Positions 11,441 to 23,802 of a stretch of 64,000 nucleotides of DNA are shown piece after piece; within the stretch, counting starts at the first letter, position 1, and each line of letters begins with the position of its first letter. Source of the DNA: Bryobacterales bacterium (GTDB lineage: Bacteria; Acidobacteriota; Terriglobia; Bryobacterales; UBA6623). Under the pieces are notes generated by a model. That model was not told where the DNA came from and searched no databases. It worked only from the letters and a program-made list of their open reading frames with translations. A program made the position numbers and the translations under genes. Location: the NCBI GenBank assembly GCA_965219585.1, contig CBDCOA010000003.1, forward strand, positions 593,375 through 657,374. The letters run 5' to 3'.

Positions 11441-12292
11441 TTGGGATCCAGCATGTCGCTCAAGGCCCGCACAACGACGGCACTGGCCGACGCGGCCCCC
11501 TCCGCCCCCGACGCGGCGGCGCAGGAGCCCGACACCGTCGAGTACCCGGAACGGCAGTGGATCGCACAAAGCGTCTGGCACGGGGAGGCGGTCCTGCTGG
11601 CCACGACAGCGCTGCGCAGCCGCTTCCGAGACCAAGAGGACGTGCTGGTGGCCATGGAACTGGCGGTGTACTACGAGCGCGGCGACGACACGGCCTGGCT
11701 GCAGCCGGACGTGCAGGTGGTGTTCGGCGTGGGACGCAGGGGGAACCGCAGCACGTACAAGGTCTGGGAGGAAGGCAAGCCGCCGGACTTCGTGCTGGAA
11801 GTGGCGTCGCCGTCCACGGAAGAACACGACGCCCGCTACAAGGCTAGGGAGTACGCCCGGATGGGAGTGCGCGAGTACTGGAGGCTGGACCCAGAAGGAG
11901 CGCTGATGGAGACGGCCTTGGAGGGCTCTGCGGCGACTGGGGGGACGTACGAGCCTGTGGAGGCCGTGGAGCGCCCGGGGGGTGGCAGGCAGCTGCGGAG
12001 CCGGGTGCTGGGGCTGGACCTGCGCAGCCGGAAGCGGGACGGAGCCACGGTGCTGGTGTTCGCCGACCCGGTGACGGGCGAGGAGTTCGACGGTGCGCCG
12101 GAGGAAGCGGAGCGGCGGCGGCGGATCGCCCAGGATCAGCTAGCCGCTACTCAGGATCGCTTGACGGTTGCGGAAGATCGGGCCAACGCCGAACGGGCAC
12201 GGGCCAATGCGGCCGAGGATAGAGTGCGGACACTGGAGGAGCGACTCCAGAACCTCGCGAGTCGTGACCGTCCTTCAGGGCTAGATTCCTAG
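11441..12292 (+). CDS. Uma2-family (DUF820) putative restriction-endonuclease-like protein with coiled-coil tail
   Basis: Shows the PD-(D/E)xK-like Uma2 pattern (PDVQVVFG..., PDFVLEVASPST...D...K...Y...GVREYWRLDP). The C-terminus is Ala/Arg/Glu-rich and helical. Confidence 0.7.
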   Translation: MGSSMSLKARTTTALADAAPSAPDAAAQEPDTVEYPERQWIAQSVWHGEAVLLATTALRSRFRDQEDVLVAMELAVYYERGDDTAWLQPDVQVVFGVGRRGNRSTYKVWEEGKPPDFVLEVASPSTEEHDARYKAREYARMGVREYWRLDPEGALMETALEGSAATGGTYEPVEAVERPGGGRQLRSRVLGLDLRSRKRDGATVLVFADPVTGEEFDGAPEEAERRRRIAQDQLAATQDRLTVAEDRANAERARANAAEDRVRTLEERLQNLASRDRPSGLDS

Positions 12293-12592
12293 GCACGAGC
12301 CCTCCAGCGCATGGCGAAGCCGTCCCGCCGCGTTGGGCCCAGCCAAGCACTGGCATCTGGTAGAGCGCCGACAGATTCCCTGAAATCCTCCTCCAAGCCC
12401 GACAGTCCCTTGTCCGATCAGTCTGCCTGCCTTGCGCGATGCTGATCGTCGCCTTGCGTTCTGGGGCTCAACGGCTGCCTTGGCTGGTCTGAACTCAGCC
12501 TCGCTGGCTCTGGGTGGACCGCCCCAGCGCCCTGCCCATGCCCCACATCTCCACACTTGACAACGCTACGGTCGTTGTGGCATGTCTGAAAC

Positions 12593-14932
12593 ATGCTCGA
12601 CCAGCATTGCATTGCCAAGACTCTCTCCACCGCACAGGCCGTGGCGACCCTGCAGGTGCTGCTGGCACAGATCGGCAGCGCCAGCCGGAGCGCATTCGCC
12701 CGCCACGTCTGCCGCGAATTCGGCTTCCTCGACAGTCTCGGCCAGCCGCAGGCGGCCAGTTGCCACAAAGCCTTGCGCCACCTGCATCGGCAGGGTCGCA
12801 TCGAGTTGCCGCCGCCGCGCCATGGCGGCCGCGGCGGCCACTGCCGCCCGCGCCGGCTGCACCAGCCGCTGCCCGCCCCGCAGGCCGTCCCCGCTAGCGC
12901 CGGGGACTTGGCCGGACTCCAGCTGACCCTGGTCACCACGCCCGCACAGCGCCAAGTTTGGAATGAGCTGGTCGCCAGCGAGCACCCGCAGGGTGCCGTC
13001 ATTCACGTCGGCCCGCAGTTGCGCTACCTGATTGAGTCCGAGCACGGCCTGCTCGGGGCGCTCGGCTTCGCCGCCTCGGCCCTGGCGGTCGCGGCCCGCG
13101 ACGAGTGGGTCGGCTGGTCGGCCGCGCTGCGCCGCAAGCGCCTGCACCGCGTGCTGGCCCTGAGCCGTTTCCTGATCCGGCCCTCGGTGCGTTGCCACTT
13201 GCTGGCCTCCAAGGTGCTGGGCCAAGTCCTGCGGCGGCTGCCGCAAGACTTCTGCCAGCGCTACGGCTACCGCCCCGCCTTGCTGGAAACCTTCTGCGAC
13301 CCGCAACAGCACGCCGGCACCTGCTTCCGCGCCGCCAATTGGATCTGCGTGGGCCACACCGCCGGGCGCGGTCGTTTCGCCGGGCGCGCCCAGCGCGTGC
13401 CGGTCAAAACCATCTTTGTGTACCCGCTGCAGGCGGACTTCCGGGACGTGCTCGGGGCCGCCCAGCCACCCGCCTGCGAGCCGCTGGCAGCGGCCGCGGG
13501 CCTCGCCTTGGACACGTTCGCCGAGCACGAACTGGGACGCGCCCCGCTGGGTGATTTACGCTTGTCCAAGCGGCTGGTGCAGACCGCCCGCATGCAAGCC
13601 GGAGCTCCCATGGCATCGATTCCAGCCGCCGCGCAGGGCCTGCGCTCGGCCGTCAAGGGCCACTACCGCCTGATCGACCAGCCGGACGAGTCGGCGGTGA
13701 CCCCGGAGAACATCCTGGCCCCGCACCGCCAGCGCACGCTGCAGCGCATGCAGGCCGAGCGCACGGTGCTGTGCGTGCAGGACGGCACGGACCTGAACTT
13801 CGCCGAGCATCCGGGCTGCGCGGGGCTGGGCTTGATCGGCAAGAACCGCGGCTCGCAGGGCACGCTGGGGCTGCACCTGCACTCGACGCTGGCGCTGAGC
13901 CCGGAAGGCATCCCGCTGGGATTGCTCAAGCTGCAGTACGAAGCGCCGGACGGGCAGGCGCAGCGCGGGCGACCGCTGGAGGAGCGCAAGAGCTTCCGCT
14001 GGATCCGCGGGTTGCGGGACTGCGCGGAGGCGGCGGGCCGCTTGACGGACACGCGTGTGGTGGCGGTGATGGACCGCGAGGCCGACGTGCTGGCGTTGTT
14101 CAGCGAGCAGCGGCGGCTGGCGGGCGTGGAACTGCTGGTGCGGGCCAAGCACAACCGTGCGCTGGGGGCGGGTCAGCCGAAGCTGTTCGAGCAGATCCGG
14201 GAGCAGGCGGCGCAAGGCCGGTTGCAGATCGAAGTGGAGCGCAGTTCGGCGCGGCGGGGCAGCGCTCGCCAGAAGGCCAAGCCGTTGCGCGCGGCGCGCA
14301 CGGCGCAGGCGGAATTGCGCTGGCAGACGGTGGAGTTGGCGGCCGGGACACAGCGGGCGGGGCCGCTGCGGCTGCAGTTGGTGCACGTGTGGGAGCGGAC
14401 GGCGCCGGAGGGGGTGGAAGCGTTGGAGTGGTTTCTGCTCACGACGCTGCCGGTGCAGTCGCAGGCGCAGGCGGAGCAGGTGCTGCAGTGGTACCGGCTG
14501 AGGTGGCGCATCGAGGACTGGCACCGGATTCTCAAGTCGGGCTGCAAGGTGGAGTACCTGGGGCACCGGAGCGGGGAGCGGATCGAGCGGGCGGTGACGA
14601 TCAAGGCGGTGATTGCGTGGCGGCTGGCAGCGCTGACGCTGCTGGGGCGGGAGACGCCGGAATTGCCGGCCACGGTGTTTTTCACGCAGATCCAGTTGCG
14701 GGTGCTGCGGCACTTCACGAGCAAGCGCAGGTTGTCCGAGCCGGACAACCTGGGCTCGGCGGTGCTGGCGATGGCGATTCTGGGTGGCTACCTGAAGAAC
14801 CCGAAAGCGCCGCCGGGACACCAGAAGATCTGGGAAGGCTGGACCCGCTTGACCATCATGAGCGAGGCGTATGAGCTGCGCGACTACTTCGAGCCGCCTG
14901 CCAGCGCCTCTCAGGAGAAGCCCGGTTCATGA
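12593..14932 (+). CDS. IS4/Tn5(IS50)-like DDE transposase fused to an N-terminal DUF4338 (DruA-like) domain
   Basis: The N-terminal ~270 aa carry DUF4338-like motifs (RDEWVGWS, SRFLIRP, LLETFCDPQQHAGTCFRAANW). The C-terminal part is an IS4-type catalytic region with the Y-(2)-R-(3)-E-(6)-K signature (YRLRWRIEDWHRILKSGCKVE) and a Tn5-like tail (IWEGWTRL). The element termini are not resolved. Confidence 0.75.
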   Translation: MLDQHCIAKTLSTAQAVATLQVLLAQIGSASRSAFARHVCREFGFLDSLGQPQAASCHKALRHLHRQGRIELPPPRHGGRGGHCRPRRLHQPLPAPQAVPASAGDLAGLQLTLVTTPAQRQVWNELVASEHPQGAVIHVGPQLRYLIESEHGLLGALGFAASALAVAARDEWVGWSAALRRKRLHRVLALSRFLIRPSVRCHLLASKVLGQVLRRLPQDFCQRYGYRPALLETFCDPQQHAGTCFRAANWICVGHTAGRGRFAGRAQRVPVKTIFVYPLQADFRDVLGAAQPPACEPLAAAAGLALDTFAEHELGRAPLGDLRLSKRLVQTARMQAGAPMASIPAAAQGLRSAVKGHYRLIDQPDESAVTPENILAPHRQRTLQRMQAERTVLCVQDGTDLNFAEHPGCAGLGLIGKNRGSQGTLGLHLHSTLALSPEGIPLGLLKLQYEAPDGQAQRGRPLEERKSFRWIRGLRDCAEAAGRLTDTRVVAVMDREADVLALFSEQRRLAGVELLVRAKHNRALGAGQPKLFEQIREQAAQGRLQIEVERSSARRGSARQKAKPLRAARTAQAELRWQTVELAAGTQRAGPLRLQLVHVWERTAPEGVEALEWFLLTTLPVQSQAQAEQVLQWYRLRWRIEDWHRILKSGCKVEYLGHRSGERIERAVTIKAVIAWRLAALTLLGRETPELPATVFFTQIQLRVLRHFTSKRRLSEPDNLGSAVLAMAILGGYLKNPKAPPGHQKIWEGWTRLTIMSEAYELRDYFEPPASASQEKPGS

Positions 14933-15092
14933 CTTGTGGGGTAACGGCAGCCAGCGCCTGATGCCTTTACTAGAGAGTTCCTGCTCGGTCTCAGGCAGGA
15001 CCAGAACATCAGATACATTTGTCGGGTGCTATAGCATTAGGCCGAGATGGTGACTAGCATTGCGCTGCGGTGTCCGGTCCGGTAGTTTCAGG

Positions 15093-15380
15093 ATGCGATT
15101 CCAAGCCGTCGGTACCGTGGTAGTTGCGTCCTGTCTCGCGATTGGCTGCGGTCGCGGAGGCGATCCGAGATCCGTTCCGCCGCTCCCACCCCCGCCAGGC
15201 GAAATCAGCACATTGCGAGACACGTGGGAATACGCGGAGTGCGCAAAGGCAATGCGTTCGGCCCGAGAGCAATACGTTGTGGACTGCTCGCGGTCGAGGT
15301 CAAAGCAGGAATGCAGGGAGTTGGCGGCGGAACGCTACAAGGGCCAGAAAGCATTCTGCGAGTCACTGCTGCTTCGCTGA
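15093..15380 (+). CDS. Small hypothetical lipoprotein
   Basis: Has a lipoprotein-type signal (MRFQAVGTVVVASCLAIGCG) followed by a Cys-containing helical polypeptide. I recognise no family. Confidence 0.35.
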   Translation: MRFQAVGTVVVASCLAIGCGRGGDPRSVPPLPPPPGEISTLRDTWEYAECAKAMRSAREQYVVDCSRSRSKQECRELAAERYKGQKAFCESLLLR

Positions 15381-15786
15381 TGCTCTGACCGGCGCCGGAC
15401 GTCTCCCAAGCACCGATCGGCTGCAGTCCCTCGGATGACCGCCCGGATCGCAGGGATAGTCATCGAGATCGACATAGTTCTGGCCAGAGCAAGCCGAGCA
15501 CTAGAATCGCCCTCGCTTCCAGTGCGGCGACTCCGTTAGCCGTCGTCTTGCATCCGTCCGCGATCGGCAGCTGAGCAGGCTTGCTTGAGACCAGCGACGG
15601 CATAGAGCCGCATCTCAGCCGTGGACTCGTGATTATCTGGGCAAATTATCTAGGCTAGCTGTCGCGTGGCTGGCAGCCCGTATCGCGGACGAGCGCACGA
15701 TCGGCGCCGCCCTGCTGCAGTGCCGACTGCAGCAAGTGCAACCTCTCCCGCATTGCACCAACTAGGCCGCCTGTATCAACTGCGTG

Positions 15787-15795
15787 CGGTCGCTA
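15787..15795. repeat. Left copy of the 9-bp target-site duplication CGGTCGCTA of the ISKra4-like element
   Basis: An identical 9-mer occurs at 17685-17693, immediately outside the terminal inverted repeats. Confidence 0.8.
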
Positions 15796-15865
15796 GGGTG
15801 TACGACTTCAAAGTGATATAGCAGGGGTTCCGGGCGGTTGAAGGCCCGAGCCAGCGGGGCAGGCA

Positions 15866-17230
15866 TCAGGGGCGGGTAGTGCGGTAGGCCCAGAAGTCCT
15901 CGTAGAGTCCACTGAGCTTGCAGCAGCGCAAGGCGGCGATCGCATTGGCGCCTGCTTTGGTCCAGTGCATCCCGGAACGCTTCAGGCGCGTGCCGAGCAC
16001 AGCCTTGCAGGCAGACTCTACGATGCCCGAAGAAACGCACAGCCCGCGGGCGCGGAAGTCGGCGTATTGCATGCGCGCGCGGTTGTTTTCGATGTAGTTG
16101 GCGCACTGGGTGGCCGCGCAGCAGTCGGCGTGGGAGCGCAGGATGGCCAGCACGTCGTCGAGGCAGCCGTCGTCGAGTTCGTCGCAGCGCACGTCGGCCC
16201 ACAGCCGGGCGTGCTCGGGCTGGTCGGGGAAGAGCGCTTTCGAGACCGCGTGCAAGTGCTCTTTGGCGTGGAACAGATCCACAATCTGGATCGCACCGGG
16301 GTAGTCTTCCCCGGCGATCTTCCAAATCCAGGCAGCTCCGTCACCGAGGATCACGCGGCGCTGGGCTTGCGGGAAGCCGCGCCGCTCGGCCTCGCGCCGC
16401 ACGCGCTGGGCGAACGGGGAGGGCTGTGGGTCGGTGTCGCGGCTGGCCGCGCTCTCGATCGCGGCCGAGTAGCTGGCCGAGCCGGGGTCGCGCATCGGGC
16501 GGCCGGTCTTGGGGTGGCGCGACTGGGCCGTCCAGACTACCGACAGCTTGGCCTCGCGGGTCTTGGCCGAGCCGTCGGGCTGCTTGCCGGCGCGCCCGGC
16601 CGTCTCGCTGGAGCGCATCGGCAAGCCGGTGCCGTCCAAGCCGAGATACATGGTCGGGGCAGACGGGCCCTCGGCAGGGAAAGCCCCGGCTTGCTCGGCG
16701 GCGGCGATCTCGCTGCCGAGCGCCTCGGCGCAGCGCTCGACCTGCTTGGCTTCCACGCGCACGCCGGCCAGTTCGGCGAGCAGCTCGGAGGACTCGGCGA
16801 AGCTGACCAGAGCGGCGCTCGCGCCGGTCATGCGCAGCACGCCGGGCGAGAGCGAGCAGCCGTGCAAGCCCAGGCTGTGGTCGCGCGGGCAGCAGCCGTG
16901 GCCGCAGGCCGGGCAATGGTAATAGGCGCGCTGGAGGGTGAGCGGGCCCAGCACGCTCTCGAAGGTCTTGGGGCGGCGGCCGGCGTAGCGGGCCGGCCGA
17001 CCACAGTCGGGGCAGTCTCGCAGCGGGCCGCAGTGGTCGGAGCGGTCGGCGTCGAGGCGCTGCTCGACGGCGCGCGCGGCGAGTTGCAGGGCGCTGCGGC
17101 GGACAGCGGTCTCGACGGCCTCGAAGTCGATGGGATCGTCCGGGCGGGTGCCGACGAAGCGGTCGATCTCGGCGCGGATGTCGGGTGCGAAGCTCTGGCT
17201 CAGCGTTTTTTTTTCGCCTGTTCGGCGGCC
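15866..17230 (-). CDS. ISKra4-family transposase frame (orfB), probably expressed as an orfA-orfB fusion by -1 frameshifting
   Basis: The frame is open from 17230. The N-terminal 92 codons (SQSFAPDIRAEIDRFVG...CPDCGRPARYAGRRPKTFESVLGPLTLQRAYYHCPACGHG) look like a conserved ISKra4 N-terminus. No ATG, GTG or TTG start occurs before 16954. Confidence 0.8.
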   Translation of the reverse strand, partial: GRRTGEKKTLSQSFAPDIRAEIDRFVGTRPDDPIDFEAVETAVRRSALQLAARAVEQRLDADRSDHCGPLRDCPDCGRPARYAGRRPKTFESVLGPLTLQRAYYHCPACGHGCCPRDHSLGLHGCSLSPGVLRMTGASAALVSFAESSELLAELAGVRVEAKQVERCAEALGSEIAAAEQAGAFPAEGPSAPTMYLGLDGTGLPMRSSETAGRAGKQPDGSAKTREAKLSVVWTAQSRHPKTGRPMRDPGSASYSAAIESAASRDTDPQPSPFAQRVRREAERRGFPQAQRRVILGDGAAWIWKIAGEDYPGAIQIVDLFHAKEHLHAVSKALFPDQPEHARLWADVRCDELDDGCLDDVLAILRSHADCCAATQCANYIENNRARMQYADFRARGLCVSSGIVESACKAVLGTRLKRSGMHWTKAGANAIAALRCCKLSGLYEDFWAYRTTRP

Positions 17231-17571
17231 TCAGCAGTTTGGGCCATGCGGGCCCGGCAGATTTGCTCGCTGATCTGGACCAGTTCCGCGGACAGGGCCT
17301 GGAAGCGGCGGTAGTTGGCAATCTGCTGGCGGGCGGTGTCGACTTGGTCGGGGCGCAGCGAGCGGGTGACGGTCTTGCCGTCGGTCTTGAAGGTGAGCGA
17401 CCAGTAGGGGCCGTGCAGCTTGCCTCCGGGCGAGCGGCATTGGCAGCCGGGCTTGCCACAGGGGCGGGAGCGAGACGAGAGGGAGCCGGGGCGCATGTCG
17501 CCGAGTTCGGCGAGCAGCCGCAAGATGCACAGCTTGCGGTCTTGGAGAGCGGAGAGGGAGAGAGTGAGCAC
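17200..17571 (-). CDS. IS orfA, DUF6788-like zinc-ribbon protein
   Basis: GTG start with AGGAGG 5 nt upstream. Carries the motif CGKPGCQCRSPGGKLHGPYWSLTFKTDGKTVTRSL. The ORF ends ..AEQAKKKR* inside the A9 run. Confidence 0.75.
   Translation of the reverse strand: MLTLSLSALQDRKLCILRLLAELGDMRPGSLSSRSRPCGKPGCQCRSPGGKLHGPYWSLTFKTDGKTVTRSLRPDQVDTARQQIANYRRFQALSAELVQISEQICRARMAQTAEAAEQAKKKR
17206..17214 (-). promoter_or_regulatory. A9 slippery run (candidate -1 ribosomal frameshift or transcriptional slippage site)
   Basis: The minus strand reads GCG AAA AAA AAA CGC TGA. The -1 frame is open only from 17230, after a TGA at 17231-17233, and continues into the transposase. Confidence 0.6.
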
Positions 17572-17684
17572 AAGGGCCTCCTATCCTCCAGTATATAGTA
17601 CTGGAGGAATCCGAAATGCAACCCTATGCCCAATATGAGACTTCGTCTCAGTTCAGCGGGAAATCACGACCATGTCGTACACCC

Positions 17685-17693
17685 CGGTCGCTA
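17685..17693. repeat. Right copy of the 9-bp target-site duplication CGGTCGCTA
   Basis: Identical to 15787-15795. Confidence 0.8.
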
Positions 17694-17800
17694 GCGGCAG
17701 TTGACCGGAAACCCGGCCACCCGCTACAATCAACACAGTACGGCGCAGTTACCTTCCTCATGGAGGGCCTGCGTCTTTTCCTTAACTGGGACCCAGCACC

Positions 17801-18112
17801 ATGTACGCGATCATCGAGACCGGCGGCAAGCAGTACACCGTCTCCCCCGGGGACGAGATCCAAGTCGAGAAGATCGATGGCGGCATCGGTGACGCGGTGA
17901 CTTTCGACAAGGTCGTCGCCGTCTCTGACGAAGACGGAACGCTACATGCGGGCAACGACGCCAGCGGCAGCGTGTCGGCGACCATTTCCGGCCACGGCAG
18001 GCACAAGAAGATCGACGTCTTCAAGTTCAAGCGTCGCAAGATGTACCGCCGCCGAATGGGGCACCGGCAGTCTTTCACGCAGGTGCGGATTGAGTCGATC
18101 TCGGGCGAGTAG
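17801..18112 (+). CDS. rplU: 50S ribosomal protein L21
   Basis: MYAIIETGGKQYTVSPGDEIQVEKI... is the canonical L21 N-terminus. 103 aa. Confidence 0.95.
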   Translation: MYAIIETGGKQYTVSPGDEIQVEKIDGGIGDAVTFDKVVAVSDEDGTLHAGNDASGSVSATISGHGRHKKIDVFKFKRRKMYRRRMGHRQSFTQVRIESISGE

Positions 18113-18136
18113 GAAGGGACGCCCCTAGGAGCAAGT

Positions 18137-18403
18137 ATGGCGCACAAGAAAGGCCAAGGAACTTCCCGCAACGGCCGAGACTCCCACTCGAAGCGGCTTG
18201 GCGTGAAGCGCTTCGCCGGGCAAGTCGTCACGGCCGGCAGCATCCTCGTCCGCCAGCGCGGAACGCGCTTCCGCCCGGGCGTCAACGTCGGCCGGGGTCG
18301 GGACGACACCCTGTTTGCGAAGATCGACGGGATCGTGGAGTTTCGCAACCGCGGCCGCATGGGCCGCATGATCAGCGTCCACCCCGTCGAGCAGGCAAGC
18401 TGA
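18137..18403 (+). CDS. rpmA: 50S ribosomal protein L27
   Basis: [57 protein letters not shown] is the canonical L27 sequence. Confidence 0.95.
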
Positions 18404-18574
18404 TCCGCCGCCCGCGGCGCGCTCGATCGCAAGCGATCGCACAGCGGGTCGAAGGGCCCGCGCTAGCGAAGCGTCCCAGCCGGCAGAGGCTGGGCAGACG
18501 GATCTTCGGATTTCGGAATGTCCTGCACCCCCGCGCGCGGCGAGGTCATTCCGGCAAGAGCGAACTCTTCAGCG

Positions 18575-19951
18575 CTACGCCAGCCCACGCAGGAGACGCC
18601 TGGAGCTTAGGATCCCCAGCGCCCCCAGCCAGGCCAGCACAGGTGCGTACTCCAAGAAAACCAAGCTGGAATCGTATTCCCACACGCCCGTGGCCTCGTA
18701 GCCGGGTACCACGTGGTACGCCAGCGGCGCTAGAGCGGTCCAAAGCAGCAACGGCCGCACGGGATGCACGGCCAGGAGGGGCAACATCCAGCTCAGATAC
18801 CAAGGAAAGCAGTTCGCCGAAAGCAGCAAGACCGCGGTCACTGCGCCCAACTCTCCGAGACACGGCGGAAGCCGCCGCCACCACAGCCAAGCGACACAAG
18901 CGATCAGAATCCACTTCCCTGCCGTCGCGGCGGACGCCATGTCGCCGCCCACCAGCCAGAGCAGCACCGCGAACAGGCTGTCGTTGTTGCGCCAGCCCAT
19001 CGTGAATCCCTCCAGCACCGCAAGCACCTCGGCGATGCCGTGCCAGTAGAGGCTGCAAATCGCGAGGCCAACCGCGCCGCCAGCCAACAGCCCCTTCCAG
19101 TGCGCTTGCCAGCGGCCGCGGCTCCGGTCCAGGGCCAGGAACGGGAACAAGACGACCGGCCAGAACTTGCAAAGCGTCGCGACCGTCAGCACGACCAGCG
19201 CCCATGTAGGCCTTCCGCGGAGCGACAGCGCAAGAGCCGCCACAGCGAGCGCGACGCCGAGCGCGTCGTTGTGGCCCTCGATCCAAAACTCCGTCACGGC
19301 AAGCGGAGACCACAGGTAGATCAACGCCCATGCCGGGGGCCGTCCGGCAGCCGCCAGCAGCCACATCAGGGCTGCACCGACCCCCAGTTCGGCCAGGGCA
19401 AACGGGAGCTTGAACAGCCAGACTTGAGTCCAAGGGTCGCTCTCCCAGAGTCGAACGCAGCGGTAGGTCCACAGGTTCAGCTGTTCGACGACCGGGCCGT
19501 ACGCTGAAGGCTTGTCCTTGGCGGCGACTCTCGGCCAGGTGGCGTCACGCAGGTTCTCCCATTGCGGATCCTCCGGCAAAGCCAAGTACGGGTCGCCGCC
19601 AGCGTGCTGGACGATGCCCTGCCAGCGGTAGCGCGCAGTGTCCTCAGACAGGCTCGGATGCAACGGAAAGACCGTGACGCGGAACAGCAGCGCCGCAACC
19701 CAGATCCAGCGGACCGATCGGGGTGTCGATAAACGGTCTGACCCGCGAATCGCGATCCAGGTGGCCGCGATATAGGCAATCGAAGCGAGGAGATAGTAAG
19801 CTAGGAACTCAGGGACATTGCTGGCCGGTCGCTCCAGATGCAGCACCAACAGGAGCCCACCCTCGATGAGGGCTGCAGCTACCCCTAGGCCCACAGTCAA
19901 CCGCCGGGCGGTCGGAGGTGCCTCTGTCGAGCCCTGAGCAAGCGGATCCAA
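18575..19951 (-). CDS. Polytopic membrane glycosyltransferase-like protein (GT-C fold, DUF2029/GT87-like)
   Basis: 458 aa with many hydrophobic helices. It has an early loop motif SEDTARYRWQG....GGDPY, typical of DUF2029/PIG-M-like mannosyltransferases. It is divergent from a GT2 gene. Confidence 0.5.
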   Translation of the reverse strand: MDPLAQGSTEAPPTARRLTVGLGVAAALIEGGLLLVLHLERPASNVPEFLAYYLLASIAYIAATWIAIRGSDRLSTPRSVRWIWVAALLFRVTVFPLHPSLSEDTARYRWQGIVQHAGGDPYLALPEDPQWENLRDATWPRVAAKDKPSAYGPVVEQLNLWTYRCVRLWESDPWTQVWLFKLPFALAELGVGAALMWLLAAAGRPPAWALIYLWSPLAVTEFWIEGHNDALGVALAVAALALSLRGRPTWALVVLTVATLCKFWPVVLFPFLALDRSRGRWQAHWKGLLAGGAVGLAICSLYWHGIAEVLAVLEGFTMGWRNNDSLFAVLLWLVGGDMASAATAGKWILIACVAWLWWRRLPPCLGELGAVTAVLLLSANCFPWYLSWMLPLLAVHPVRPLLLWTALAPLAYHVVPGYEATGVWEYDSSLVFLEYAPVLAWLGALGILSSRRLLRGLA

Positions 19952-19973
19952 GATCGCCCCAAGCGTAACGCAG

Positions 19974-21476
19974 ATGAGTATCGTCGACCTCCTGCTGCTC
20001 GGAGCGTACTTCGGGCTGATGGCCGTGCTAAGTCTGTTCGGGCTGCACCGCTATGCGCTGGTCTACCTGTACCACCGCCACCGCGACCGGGTGCTGGGGG
20101 CGCCGCAGCGGCAGTTCGAGCAACTTCCCGCAGTGACCGTACAGCTACCGGTCTTCAACGAGCGCTTCGTCGTGGCTGATCTCGTCAACTCCGTCTGCGC
20201 CCTGCGCTACCCCCGGCGCCTGCTTCAGATTCAAGTCTTGGACGACTCCACCGACGAAACCTCTGCCGTGCTTGAGCGCATCGTGGGCGAAAAGCGCGCG
20301 GCGGGCGAGCCGATCGAATACATCCACCGCTCCAATCGGGAGGGCTACAAGGCCGGCGCCCTCGCGGCAGGCCTGCGCCAGGCGTCGGGGGAGTTGATCG
20401 CGATCTTCGACGCAGACTTCACCCCCAAGCGCGACTTTCTCGAAAAGCTCGTCCACTACTTCGCCGACCCCGCAGTCGGCATGGTCCAAGCGCGCTGGAC
20501 CTTCCGCAACCGCGATCTGTCGCTGCTAACCCGGGTCCAGGCGATGCTGTTGGACGGCCACTTCGTTTTCGAACACGGCGGCCGCGCCCGGTCCGGACGT
20601 TTCTTCAACTTCAACGGGACCGCTGGGATGCTCCGCAAGGCGATGATCGACGATGCCGGCGGATGGCAGCACGACACGCTTACGGAAGACACCGACCTGA
20701 GCTACCGGGCGCAGTTGCGCGGTTGGAAGTTCTTATACGCATCGCACGTGGAAGCGCCATCCGAGCTGCCCGCCGACATGGCCGACTTCCAAGTCCAGCA
20801 GTTCCGCTGGGCCAAGGGGCTGCTGCAGACCGGGCTGAAGCTGCTGCCGACTCTGTTGCGCTCGGGCCAGCCCGCCGGGATCAAGCTAGAGGCCGGGTTT
20901 CACCTACTCGCCAACATCGCTTATCCGATGATGCTGCTCCTGGCGGCGCTCATCCTGCCCTCCATGCTTGTGCGCCACGAGCTCCTGGACGGTCAGCTGC
21001 TCTGGCTGGACCTGCCTGCATTCTTGCTCACCTTCTGCTCTCTTTCGAGCTTCTATACCCTGTCCCAGGCGGAGCTGGGTCGCGGCGGAGTCCATCGCCA
21101 CCTGAAACTGGTGCCTCCGCTGGTGCTCGCGGGCATCTCGCTCTCTATCAGCAACTCGCGGGCAGTGCTGGGCGCCATGCGCGGGTCACGCTCGGCTTTT
21201 GAGCGCACAGCGAAATACAGCGGCGACCGCAGCGCCGCAACGCTCGCGCGCAGGGCGTACGGCCGTCGCGGCGGATGGCGCGTAATCGCCAACCTCGCCG
21301 CAGCCAGCTATTTCGCGGTCTGTCTAGGCGTCGCAGTCGACATCGAGCACTGGCTCGGCCTGCCAGTGATTGCGCTCTTTCTGGCCGGGTTCTCGTACGC
21401 CGGCTTCTCCATGCTGAGCGACACACGCACAGGCAACCGGGCTGTGTTGCGCACGGCCGACGATTCGGCACCGTGA
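19974..21476 (+). CDS. Family 2 glycosyltransferase, processive cellulose-synthase-like type
   Basis: Carries the D,D,D,QxxRW signature (VLDDSTD, IFDADF, TEDTDLSYR, QVQQFRWAKG) and has transmembrane helices at both ends. Confidence 0.8.
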   Translation: MSIVDLLLLGAYFGLMAVLSLFGLHRYALVYLYHRHRDRVLGAPQRQFEQLPAVTVQLPVFNERFVVADLVNSVCALRYPRRLLQIQVLDDSTDETSAVLERIVGEKRAAGEPIEYIHRSNREGYKAGALAAGLRQASGELIAIFDADFTPKRDFLEKLVHYFADPAVGMVQARWTFRNRDLSLLTRVQAMLLDGHFVFEHGGRARSGRFFNFNGTAGMLRKAMIDDAGGWQHDTLTEDTDLSYRAQLRGWKFLYASHVEAPSELPADMADFQVQQFRWAKGLLQTGLKLLPTLLRSGQPAGIKLEAGFHLLANIAYPMMLLLAALILPSMLVRHELLDGQLLWLDLPAFLLTFCSLSSFYTLSQAELGRGGVHRHLKLVPPLVLAGISLSISNSRAVLGAMRGSRSAFERTAKYSGDRSAATLARRAYGRRGGWRVIANLAAASYFAVCLGVAVDIEHWLGLPVIALFLAGFSYAGFSMLSDTRTGNRAVLRTADDSAP

Positions 21477-21511
21477 AGAGCGGCAGGCCCAGAGCAGGCG
21501 AGTACATTCCC

Positions 21512-23740
21512 AGGGCCATTTTTTTGTCCGAGTCCGAGGCAGTGCACGACAGTAGCCGGAGGGGCAGTGGCTGCCTGCTAGAGTTTGCGAGCTCGGCATG
21601 GTAGCGCTGTCTGCTGCGAGGACTGGACATTTTGTTGTCAGTCTGTCAGGCTAGGCTCTAGTGGCAGCGCCAAGCGGCTTGCGGGATCTGGATTTGCGCT
21701 CCGTGCAGGTGCGCCCCACGCACGGTGCGCAGGAGCACCGGCGCTGGGACCGCTTGGTGGCCAGCCACCACTACCTAGCGTTCGAGGGGTTGTTCGGCAA
21801 GGCCCTGCGGCATGTGGCGACGCTGGGGCAGGACTGGATCGCACTGGTGGGCTGGCAGGCCGCCGCGCTCAAGCTGGCGGCCCGTGACCGCTGGATCGGC
21901 TGGAGCCCGCAGCAGCAGCGGCGGCGCCTGCATCTGCTCACGCAGAACTCGCGCTTCGTGATTCTGCCGGCTTGGCAGGGGGCGCCCAATCTGGCCTCGC
22001 GGGTGCTCGGGCTGAGCTTGCGACGGCTTTCGGACGACATGTTGGCCGAGCACGGCATTCCGAGCCTGTTAGCGGAGTCGTTCGTGGACCCTGAACGCTT
22101 CGCCGGCACCTGTTACCGGGCCGCCAACTGGCGCTCGCTGGGCTTCAGCGGCGGCTACGCACGGCTGCCGGGTGCCACGCCGCGCTGGCGTCGGCACGGC
22201 CAGCGGAAGGAGATTTTCGTGTACGAATTGCAGCCCGGCGCGGCCCTCAAGCTGGCCCAGCCGGAGGATGATCCGGCCTGGGACGGGCCGGCCCGCAGCG
22301 CGCCCCCCGACGCGCAGACGCTGCGCAGTCTGTTCGAGTTCCTCGGCGAGTTGCCCGAGTACCGCCATGCGCGCGGCAAGCGCTACGGCTTGCGCAGCGT
22401 GCTGGCCTTGGCGGTGGCGGCGCGCCTGTGCGGCTACCGCGGGGTGACCGCCTTCGCCCAGTTCGCGGCCCTGCTGAGCCAGTCGCAGCGACTGGCGGTG
22501 GAGTGTTTCTACAGCCCCAGCCAAGGCTGCTACACGAGTCCGTCGATCACCACGTTCCACAACATTCTGGCGACCCTAGAGCCGCAGACGCTGGAGGAGG
22601 CGGTGCGCGGGTGGGCCCTCCAGCAAAGCGCGCAAGTGCAGTCACAGCAAGACGCTACGGATTCGTCCAAGGCCGCCAGCGAGGCACCCAGCGAGGGCCC
22701 GGCAGTGCTGCCGGGCGTGAGCCTGGACGGCAAGGACGTGCGCGGGGCCTCCAAGCAGAGCGCACACGGTCGGCGCATGCTGCTGGCCGCGGTGGAGCAG
22801 GGCAGCGGCGTGGTGCTGGGACAGTTGGAGATCGACTCCAAGACCAACGAGATCCCGGCCTTCCGGGAACTAGCCAGGCAACTCGACCTGGCCGGGCGGG
22901 TGGTCACCGGCGACGCGCTGCACGCCCAGCAGGAGACGGCCCGCTGCCTGCTCGAGGAATCCCAGGCAGACTATCTGATCACCGCGGTGAAAAACAACCA
23001 GCCAACGCTGTTCCGGGACCTGCAAGAGATGGACTTCAGTGCCTGCCCGCTGGTGGAGACGCTGGACAAGCAGCATGGCCGCATCGAGCGCCGACGCTAC
23101 TGGGTCAAGGACATCAGCGCCGCCGAATGGGACGACTATGCCGCCCTGCACGGCCGCCAGCAGGCCATCCGCGTCGAACGTCGGCGGCAGCACGTCAAGA
23201 GCGGCAAGAGCAGCACCGAAGTGAGCTATGCGCTCACCTCGCTGGGCCCCGCACGGGCCACCCCCGAGCAACTCGCGGAGTTGCTGCGCAACCACTGGCA
23301 GATCGAGAACCGCCTGCACTATGTGCGTGACTTCACCTACGACGAAGACCGCTGCCGCGTGTATGTGCGCGACCTGCCGCGCAACCTGGCCTGTCTGACC
23401 AACACGGCCATTTCGATCATCCGCTGCCTGCCCCAATTCCGCTACGTGCCGGAGGCCAACCGGCATTTCGCGGCACGCCCGCAGGAGGCTCTCGACTTGC
23501 TGCTGCAAGCGCCCTCGCCTTAGCCCATGCGAGCGTCCCGCCAGCCTGCCCGGCAACGCCTTGCGAGGCGTCACACCCCCGCTGCGCCGACACTGTCCAG
23601 TGCCCCCTCGCGGGCGCTGCGAAGAGCGGCCCAGCGCCCTTCGAGCAGGCCCTTGCAACTCCAGCGACAGGCTGCCCTAGTTGCACGAGCAACGATCCGA
23701 TCCCATCAGACGAGTCACGTATCGACAAAAAAATGTACCT
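21512..23740 (+). mobile_element. ISAs1-family insertion sequence encoding a DUF4338-transposase fusion (~2.23 kb)
   Basis: An identical 12-mer, GAGTACATTCCC, flanks the element at 21500-21511 and 23741-23752. The terminal inverted repeats are AGGGCCATTTTTTTGTC (left) and the reverse complement of GACAAAAAAATGTACCT (right), matching at 15 of 17 positions. Because the outermost C/G is ambiguous, the duplication is 10-12 bp. The ends may be CAGG...CCTG at 21511 and 23741. Confidence 0.85.
21661..23523 (+). CDS. ISAs1-family DDE transposase fused to an N-terminal DUF4338 (DruA-like) domain
   Basis: The N-terminus has DUF4338-like motifs (RDRWIGWS, SRFVILP, LAESFVDPERFAGTCYRAANW). The remainder resembles ISAs1 (H-repeat-associated) transposases (LPEYRHARGKRYGL..., VSLDGKDVRG, ITAVKNNQPTL, HWQIENRLHYVRD). 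Confidence 0.8.
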   Translation: MAAPSGLRDLDLRSVQVRPTHGAQEHRRWDRLVASHHYLAFEGLFGKALRHVATLGQDWIALVGWQAAALKLAARDRWIGWSPQQQRRRLHLLTQNSRFVILPAWQGAPNLASRVLGLSLRRLSDDMLAEHGIPSLLAESFVDPERFAGTCYRAANWRSLGFSGGYARLPGATPRWRRHGQRKEIFVYELQPGAALKLAQPEDDPAWDGPARSAPPDAQTLRSLFEFLGELPEYRHARGKRYGLRSVLALAVAARLCGYRGVTAFAQFAALLSQSQRLAVECFYSPSQGCYTSPSITTFHNILATLEPQTLEEAVRGWALQQSAQVQSQQDATDSSKAASEAPSEGPAVLPGVSLDGKDVRGASKQSAHGRRMLLAAVEQGSGVVLGQLEIDSKTNEIPAFRELARQLDLAGRVVTGDALHAQQETARCLLEESQADYLITAVKNNQPTLFRDLQEMDFSACPLVETLDKQHGRIERRRYWVKDISAAEWDDYAALHGRQQAIRVERRRQHVKSGKSSTEVSYALTSLGPARATPEQLAELLRNHWQIENRLHYVRDFTYDEDRCRVYVRDLPRNLACLTNTAISIIRCLPQFRYVPEANRHFAARPQEALDLLLQAPSP

Positions 23741-23802
23741 GAGTACATTCCCGCCGGTCTTGTACTGACTGGCCGCTTCCGGCAAAATAGGGGATCGGCC
23801 CG

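Follow-up and report, generated by a model that had tools for sequence, protein, structure and literature searches.

Two transposase genes with a common N-terminal module

The 64,000-nucleotide stretch of Bryobacterales DNA analysed here (hereafter 'the window'; assembly GCA_965219585.1, contig CBDCOA010000003.1, positions 593,375 to 657,374) contains two insertion sequences (ISs), one of Tn5 type and one of ISAs1 type, each bounded by inverted repeats and target duplications and each with a sole open reading frame (ORF), in which a transposase is fused to an additional N-terminal module. The first, ORF1 (779 aa), matches the Pfam domains Tnp_DNA_bind, DDE_Tnp_1 and Dimer_Tnp_Tn5 and the NCBIfam model transpos_IS4_3 (NF033590; 322 bits, cut-off 160), and the second, ORF2 (620 aa), matches DDE_Tnp_1_assoc and DDE_Tnp_1 and the model transpos_ISAs1 (NF033564; 190 bits, cut-off 70). 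When the two proteins were compared by BLASTP the module alone aligned, with 71 of 181 residues identical (39%, E 1e-30) and nothing else below E 0.9; a region of about 185 aa is the sole part common to both. It matches the Pfam family PF14236 (DruA/DUF4338) at residues 104–262 of ORF1 (E 1.7e-29, 103.3 bits) and 23–169 of ORF2 (E 3.1e-23, 82.8 bits), against a gathering threshold of 27 bits. A preliminary description of this DNA, made from the sequence alone, had reported a homologous N-terminal module in IS4/Tn5-like and ISAs1-like transposases and had assigned it to DUF4338; both points hold, the ORFs lying exactly where described and the matches to the hidden Markov model standing far above the cut-off. 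Its view of the two transposases as 'unrelated' is right in that they belong to different IS families, but both match PF01609 (DDE_Tnp_1) and share one broad DDE superfamily.

This study shows that active IS elements of several families contain, as an integral component under selection, a GNAT-fold domain with the catalytic residue pattern of Mom, a modification enzyme of phage Mu.

Predicted fold of the module

An AlphaFold 2 model of residues 1–300 of ORF1, built with 83 aligned homologues (pLDDT 90.7, pTM 0.85), consists of a helical leader (residues 4–66) joined by a linker to an alpha/beta domain, whose beta-alpha core spans residues 110–286. A Foldseek search of the PDB with this model gave 139 matches at E ≤ 1e-3, and the best 50 were almost all members of the GNAT superfamily, with a probability of 1.00. 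The top structure was phage Mu Mom (8bv8, E 4e-6), followed by SpeG, RimI, FeeM and acyl-homoserine lactone synthase; among the predicted viral structures of BFVD a phage Mom ranked fourth (E 4e-8). A sequence search of the PDB with the module profile gave chance matches only (E ≥ 0.4). On these models the module is predicted to have the GNAT (acyltransferase) fold, in agreement with the only classification of DUF4338 that we found in the literature, one line that describes it as a GCN5-like acetyltransferase domain, fused to some DndF proteins in defence loci (PMC10853773). The preliminary description had suggested a module of DNA recognition or regulation; instead of DNA recognition we find a GNAT fold with nearly invariant Mom-like catalytic residues. 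A generic helix-turn-helix common to many IS families, the other candidate, is ruled out by the model and the fold search.

The module lacks the canonical acyl-CoA pyrophosphate loop (Q/RxxGxG/A, located between strand 4 and helix 3); the position reads v-x-x-[NH]-L-A-S in all eight module families of the genome. The helical leader of ORF1 is also found in IS4-fused and IS66-associated forms of the module and is absent from the ISAs1 type; modelled alone (pLDDT 85.7), it gave no PDB match better than E 1.3, with scattered weak winged-helix matches. Many phage proteins of approximately 400–700 aa in BFVD, annotated as 'endonuclease-like' or 'homing endonuclease', also contain a domain that matches the module fold (E 1e-5 to 1e-4); in these, too, a Mom-like GNAT may have been combined with a nuclease of mobile DNA.

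Relationship to phage Mu Mom

The counter-restriction enzyme Mom (PMC13219725) takes glycine from Gly-tRNA(Gly) and attaches it to N6 of adenine in double-stranded DNA; its residues R111, S124 and D149, together with H58, Y59 and Y159, have been found essential or important (PMC13219725, 2026). The question we posed was whether Mom (SPECIFICALLY) is the nearest relative of the module, or whether the module is just another GNAT. The Mom sequence was taken from the annotated Mu record, and a Mom family profile of 108 sequences was aligned with a module profile of 135 sequences by hhalign, giving E 6.7e-5 over 118 columns. In a permissive Pfam scan PF25680 (Mom) was the sole other family to score, with the ORF1 module, at E 0.011. 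As a control, nine ordinary PF00583 GNATs of the same genome gave only short alignments with scores of 10–18, against the module and Mom profiles alike.

The alignment places equivalents of the essential Mom residues in the module, and these are kept in 91–99% of 237 IS modules, drawn from the window's genome, 95 loci of other genomes and 150 cluster representatives. H58/Y59 of Mom correspond to an H(Y) in which the histidine is present in 236 of the 237; R111 falls in 'nsRF' (R98 in the NSRF of ORF2; arginine in 235) and S124 in 'NLAS' (S113 of ORF2; serine in 232). D149 corresponds to the aspartate of 'ETFVD' (D143 in 'ESFVD' of ORF2), where 224 modules have D or E, and Y159 to the tyrosine of 'GTCYRAANW' (Y152 of ORF2), where 215 have Y or F; a further glutamate (233/237) and glycine (236/237) are also conserved. 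The Mom-equivalent residues are H131, R192, S206, E232, D236, F245, N249 and W250 in ORF1 and H37, Y38, R98, S113, E139, D143, Y152, N156 and W157 in ORF2.

Several observations weigh against so close a relationship. The PF25680 score of the ORF1 module is 15.8 bits, below the gathering threshold of 27.1, and ORF2 has none; the hhalign probability is 64%, computed without secondary-structure scoring; and the TM-score to Mom is 0.59, no better than that to SpeG or RimI (0.6–0.68). R151 of Mom aligns one position off, and the essential helix-turn-helix-like insertion of Mom (residues ~175–209) has no counterpart in the module, which has instead a 17-residue G/R-rich loop between its last two strands (251–255 and 273–278). 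The hhalign match ends at Mom 159–160 in the numbering of the Mu record, that is, at about 169–170 in that of the paper.

These structural scores bear on a different reading, in which the module is an acyl-CoA-dependent protein or small-molecule acetyltransferase; by acetylating the transposase or a host DNA-architectural protein it would link transposition to metabolic state, leaving nucleic acid unmodified. Most of the PDB fold matches are indeed N-acetyltransferases of proteins or polyamines (SpeG, RimI, RimL, HP0935), with TM-scores at least equal to that of Mom, and the published classification of DUF4338 points the same way (PMC10853773). However, the module lacks the Q/RxxGxG/A loop of GNATs that use CoA, having 'NLAS' where Mom has 'NSES', and at the level of sequence profiles Mom alone aligns and the nine PF00583 GNATs do not; we regard such an acetyltransferase as unlikely. 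The module falls outside the Mom family by formal membership but, judged by the alignment, has Mom's catalytic constellation, and its nearest characterised relative is phage Mu Mom. We are confident in describing it as a Mom-like GNAT accessory domain of IS elements.

The two elements are intact and recently active

The ends of both elements were set by aligning the flanks of all copies in the genome, and the resulting features are collected in Table 1. The Tn5-type element begins CTGCCCATGCCCCACA... and ends ...TGTGGGGTAACGGCAG (CTGCC...CCCCACA), with inverted repeats that match at 13 of 16 positions, and the ISAs1-type element begins CAGGGCCATTTTTTTGTC... and ends ...GACAAAAAAATGTACCTG, with 16 of 18 positions matching. 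By transposase, terminal inverted repeats and target duplication, the former is a member of the IS50 group of the IS4 family and the latter of the ISAs1 family. The intact ends and target duplication previously described for the ISAs1-type element are borne out, except that the duplication is of 10 bp and not 12.

Table 1. Coordinates of the two insertion sequences, their fusion genes and the predicted parts of the encoded proteins.
Feature	Position	Strand	Basis or remark
Tn5/IS50-type insertion sequence, 2419 bp	12532..14950	+	Ends are where 23 genome copies stop matching
Left 8-bp target-site duplication of Tn5-type IS, CCAGCGCC	12524..12531	.	Identical 8-mer at 14951-14958
Right 8-bp target-site duplication of Tn5-type IS, CCAGCGCC	14951..14958	.	
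ORF1, 779-aa fusion protein: helical leader, Mom-like GNAT module (predicted) and Tn5-type transposase	12593..14932	+	Pfam, NCBIfam
ORF1 N-terminal helical leader, aa 4-66 (predicted)	12602..12790	+	AlphaFold 2 models
ORF1 GNAT-fold module (predicted), aa 100-285, PF14236 profile positions 45-223	12890..13447	+	
ORF1 Tn5-type transposase proper: Tnp_DNA_bind aa 310-364, IS4_3 core aa 356-760	13520..14872	+	
ISAs1-type insertion sequence, 2231 bp	21511..23741	+	Flank alignment of genome copies
Left 10-bp target-site duplication of ISAs1-type IS, AGTACATTCC	21501..21510	.	
Right 10-bp target-site duplication of ISAs1-type IS, AGTACATTCC	23742..23751	.	
ORF2, 620-aa fusion protein: Mom-like GNAT module (predicted) and ISAs1-type transposase, no leader	21661..23523	+	
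ORF2 GNAT-fold module (predicted), aa 6-196	21676..22248	+	
ORF2 ISAs1 transposase proper: DDE_Tnp_1_assoc aa 226-319, core (NF033564) aa 247-587	22336..23421	+	

In the window's genome a perfect 10-bp target duplication flanks 28 of the 29 ISAs1-type copies, and a perfect 8-bp duplication, different in sequence in each case, flanks 20 of the 23 full Tn5-type copies; identity between copies is at least 99.87% for the ISAs1-type element and at least 99.79% for the Tn5-type. Both window elements are intact and recently active, and the earlier view that the ISAs1-type fusion protein is competent for transposition applies to both. In the other three Tn5-type copies the left and right flanks differ by one or two bases or belong to different sites, and recombination between copies is the likely cause. 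The Tn5-type element has a strong preference for GC-rich, near-palindromic targets, with a consensus of about GCCGCGGS. Many of the 8-bp flanks being palindromic, it was considered whether they are part of the inverted repeat; this is ruled out by non-palindromic flanks, such as GGCGCAGG, CCTGCACC and CGTGTGGC, which occur as direct repeats. Elsewhere in the genome (contig C2, ~1,562,000–1,565,000) a 620-aa-type ISAs1 element splits a Tn5-type copy inside its GNAT module, the target duplication, GCGCTCGGCT, lying within the module coding sequence.

A target preference as marked as this might be expected if the module were a non-catalytic DNA-recognition or regulatory one, the GNAT fold being reused as a scaffold that helps transposases to find their ends or targets; each IS species does have its own ends and its own target duplication, and both transposases bring the module to DNA. 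On the other hand, both transposases already own DNA-binding domains (Tnp_DNA_bind and DDE_Tnp_1_assoc), the fold is not helix-turn-helix, and near-identical motifs occur in elements with quite different ends. What stays 95–99% invariant in all seven kinds of transposase association is the set of residues that correspond to the catalytic ones of Mom, rather than a variable specificity surface, and we consider a non-catalytic recognition or regulatory module highly improbable.

Directly to the left of the Tn5-type element lies a gene for a putative restriction endonuclease of the Uma2 family (PF05685, E 1e-19; 11441–12292, + strand). Between the two elements, in the region 15866–17571 on the – strand, is an ISKra4-family transposase ORF of 361 aa (NF033572, 274 bits, model positions 79–420), which is N-terminally truncated or mis-started and does not carry the GNAT module; upstream of it on the same strand stands a 123-aa DUF6788 ORF (PF20586, E 5e-30), and the two may together form a two-gene IS.

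Module-bearing elements across the genome

The genome (7.9 Mb in three contigs) contains 86–87 module ORFs, all of them within IS elements. At a level of 85% identity they form eight module-bearing IS species of three architectures, all eight matching PF14236 (59–104 bits). The ISAs1 type comprises proteins of 622 aa (29 copies, including ORF2), 620 aa (11 copies) and 642 aa (five copies), and the Tn5 type proteins of 780 aa (25 copies, including ORF1), 778 aa (seven), 766 aa (three) and 764 aa (one); the third architecture, the classic IS4 type (Nterm_IS4 plus DDE), is represented by two copies of 767 aa. Together these elements amount to around 178 kb, or 2.3% of the genome, and the module is present on about half of the genome's 147 DDE_Tnp_1 matches. 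The 75 full-length module-bearing copies that we examined are bounded by their own ends and have no other gene inside.

Within families, identity is 35–61% over the module and 30–67% over the transposase part (for example, 54% against 35% for c0–c4); conservation of the module thus equals or exceeds that of the transposase core. The genome is very rich in ISs, however, and families that lack the module reach copy numbers just as high, so that in general an IS can succeed here without it. These module-less multicopy DDE_Tnp_1 classes have open frames of 462 aa (~15 copies), 577–579 aa (~20), 619 aa (~10) and, in a second class of that length, 622 aa (~6); the long ones may carry other N-terminal domains.

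Contrast with true DruA

Pfam places the module in the family of DruA, and a relative of the same genus (G024) has a complete type I Druantia-like locus (L111, contig C20, 9000–26346) that allows a direct comparison. There, a DruA of 386 aa is followed by two ORFs of 995 and 367 aa without Pfam matches and by a DruE1 of 1862 aa (PADLOC, 1930 bits). This DruA matches the whole Pfam profile (positions 2–297, 285 bits) and scores 470 bits with the PADLOC DruA1 model, with which ORF1 scores 14.6 bits and ORF2 has no match; the IS modules cover only positions ~45–225 of the 297, and every module copy in the window's genome is IS-borne rather than set among DruB–DruE genes. In the module tree described below, DruA stands on a branch of length 2.6. 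Taken together, the extent of the profile match, the PADLOC scores, the gene context and the tree rule out that the module is a real DruA.

Module and DruA are nevertheless alike in belonging to one Pfam family, and hhalign relates them with a probability of 96%, mainly over the segment G..LRYL...RD.WIGW...R..RL. As for differences, the NLAS of the module is replaced by GGK in DruA, in which equivalents of R, S and D are also missing, and DruA has no similarity to the Mom profile; these statements, like the branch length, refer to the two true DruA sequences examined. The GGK loop of DruA stands at the CoA-loop position of ordinary GNATs, and DruA may therefore use a different donor from the IS modules. 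By these sequence comparisons the IS module is a subfamily of its own within PF14236, and conclusions drawn from it transfer to DruA only with caution. The suggestion that the fusions could inform the function of DruA is accordingly weak, given the very long separate branch, the missing R/S/D set and the PADLOC scores.

The same comparison bears on whether the module is a defence or counter-defence passenger, namely a DruA-type component carried by ISs that plays no part in transposition and acts against phages, or else keeps host restriction from destroying the element while it is transferred horizontally. Its family assignment, the counter-restriction activity of Mom (PMC13219725), the DndF fusions in defence loci (PMC10853773) and the presence of a real DruA–DruE locus in a relative would all suit such a passenger. 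Yet all 86–87 copies lie inside ISs, the 75 full-length ones without other genes; the PADLOC models separate the modules from true DruA, which in turn lacks the Mom-like residue set; and translational fusion to the transposase in four families, with co-divergence in each, is not expected of a passenger. We judge this explanation improbable.

Spread and transposase partners

A profile of the two window modules matched 8089 clusters (50% identity, E ≤ 1e-3) among 1.84 billion representatives, and word-based searches gave at least 1789 ISAs1-type and at least 883 Tn5-type clusters at 90% identity. The source names of the clusters were solely 'ISAs1 family transposase', 'IS4 family transposase', 'hypothetical protein' and 'DUF4338/transposase-like'. 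Two peptide patterns found more than 549 loci in species-representative genomes, the closest (92% identity) in Bryobacterales and others in Alpha- and Gammaproteobacteria, Thermodesulfobacteriota, Verrucomicrobiota, Bacillota, Chloroflexi, Planctomycetota, Gemmatimonadota, Bacteroidetes and further groups. All 24 sampled genomes of the window's genus had module matches, with up to 293 first-look candidates in one; in other genera of the order, two of 16 sampled genomes had such matches.

Partners were assigned by classifying 150 cluster representatives with phmmer against the in-genome transposase cores and by inspecting loci in other genomes. Besides the IS4, Tn5 and ISAs1 fusions, the module is fused to a DDE_5 (IS701-type) core (L087), and leader-plus-module genes of about 300 aa lie directly upstream of IS66 transposases at nine loci (L071, L072, L074, L086, L098, L100, L106, L124, L125) and upstream of a UPF0236/ISKra4-like gene at one (L101). 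At seven loci (L113, L120, L123, L093, L079, L109, L117) the module gene is instead directly downstream of, and overlapping, the IS66 transposase gene; L113, L120, L123, L093 and L117 of this class come from relatives and other phyla. The occurrence of both gene orders beside IS66 indicates that IS66 acquired a module gene at least twice. The long ORFs of L117 (1032 aa) and L093 (877 aa) had the appearance of C-terminal module fusions, which we rejected as read-through of high-GC DNA, each being really an IS66 gene and an overlapping module gene. In the relative G021 the IS66-downstream class makes up many of the approximately 293 first-look candidates.

A quick maximum-likelihood tree was made of 176 non-redundant modules, only rows at least 75% identical to a kept row having been removed, with true DruA as the root. 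All IS4-fused modules group together as a clade (support 95). The same is true of the ISAs1-fused modules (support 99, all 52 fused rows), which are nested among IS66-upstream, ISKra4-adjacent and IS701-fused modules, and of the Tn5-fused modules (support 91, 43 rows), which stand beside the IS66-downstream clade. Each fused partner family thus has its own module clade, whereas the IS66-associated modules fall in several. Over the rows with a known partner there are eight label changes for seven states (the minimum being six), and the Tn5-fused and ISAs1-fused rows are exactly one label change apart. Such a pattern is what would be seen if each transposase family had gained its module in a single old fusion and the two parts had since diverged together; it does not suggest that modules were often exchanged. 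The tree came from a short search and is rooted on a very long branch, which counts against reading too much into it, and we claim no order of events. The earlier proposal of a portable module, fused independently to more than one transposase family, is upheld here, as the one label change between Tn5- and ISAs1-fused modules indicates, and IS4, IS701-type and IS66 transposases are further partners.

Proposed role of the module

On the whole we lean, by a little, towards the module working in the service of transposition as a Mom-like, catalytically active acyl- or aminoacyl-transferase. That it is catalytically active seems probable. In such a mechanism the module would be held at DNA by the transposase's own DNA-binding parts (Tnp_DNA_bind or DDE_Tnp_1_assoc), standalone forms being tethered by the helical leader, and would transfer an acyl or aminoacyl group. 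The most likely acceptor, by analogy with Mom, would be nucleic acid at the transposition complex, in one version a base in DNA at or near the complex; a mark on the ends or the target might then regulate reuse of the ends, give target immunity or protect the DNA. That the acceptor is DNA itself is a possibility about which we have some doubt. More speculative is the full extension of the analogy, that many bacterial IS elements, from at least five DDE families, encode a Mom-type DNA-modifying enzyme of their own. With an aminoacyl-tRNA or other acyl donor it would attach bulky groups to adenines of the ends, the excised intermediate or the target, such hypermodification controlling or protecting transposition.

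The transposases of IS4, ISAs1, IS701 and IS66 are thought of as DNA-binding and DDE-catalytic proteins; here they are accompanied, in thousands of protein clusters from many phyla, by a second, strongly conserved enzyme domain that is annotated only as transposase, hypothetical protein or 'DruA'. Should the module prove to be an active transferase like Mom, the life cycle of IS elements would include the chemical marking of nucleic acid or protein, adding a new layer to the control of transposition, and the recently discovered tRNA-dependent modification of DNA would have a second natural setting. Matches to PF14236 should not be read as Druantia defence genes, for all 86 in this genome are IS elements and would inflate defence counts based on Pfam alone. 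With eight module-bearing IS species in about 85 copies on 2.3% of its DNA, the genome offers a good natural test system.

Public databases do show the architectures themselves, and one published line has assigned DUF4338 to the GNATs (PMC10853773). In the literature we found no paper linking the PF14236/DUF4338 family to transposases or to Mom, and the Mom study mentions neither DruA nor transposons (PMC13219725). What is new here is the scale, with eight IS species, three architectures, around 85 fresh copies and the module in every sampled genome of the genus. Also new are the controls and the side-by-side comparison with a relative's true Druantia locus.

Comparison with known systems

The Tn5-type element resembles Tn5/IS50 in having Tnp_DNA_bind, DDE_Tnp_1 and the Tn5 dimerisation domain in a single ORF, and in ends that start with CTG. 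It differs in the addition of about 300 N-terminal residues, comprising the leader and the GNAT module, in its GC-rich, near-palindromic targets and in its 8-bp target duplication, that of IS50 being 9 bp. Similarly, the ISAs1-type element has the NF033564 transposase with DDE_Tnp_1_assoc and DDE_Tnp_1, the short terminal inverted repeats and the 10-bp duplication of its family, but ORF2 adds around 200 N-terminal residues, the GNAT module; canonical ISAs1 transposases are of approximately 300–380 aa.

In other genomes the module occurs as a small separate gene beside an IS66 transposase, recalling the accessory genes tnpA and tnpB beside tnpC, although it encodes leader plus GNAT rather than TnpA or TnpB and may lie upstream or downstream of the transposase; no IS66 element with a module gene was seen in the window. 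With Mom itself the module shares the predicted GNAT fold, the lack of a CoA loop and a series of motifs: H-Y, an (N)R in strand 4, N-x-x-S-R at the start of helix 3, SF-x-D in strand 5 and G-x-x-Y-x-A-x-N-F/W. The 'RD.WIGW' helix pair typical of PF14236 is present in the module and not in Mom, and whereas Mom is the product of a late phage gene, the module is fused to, or paired with, transposases.

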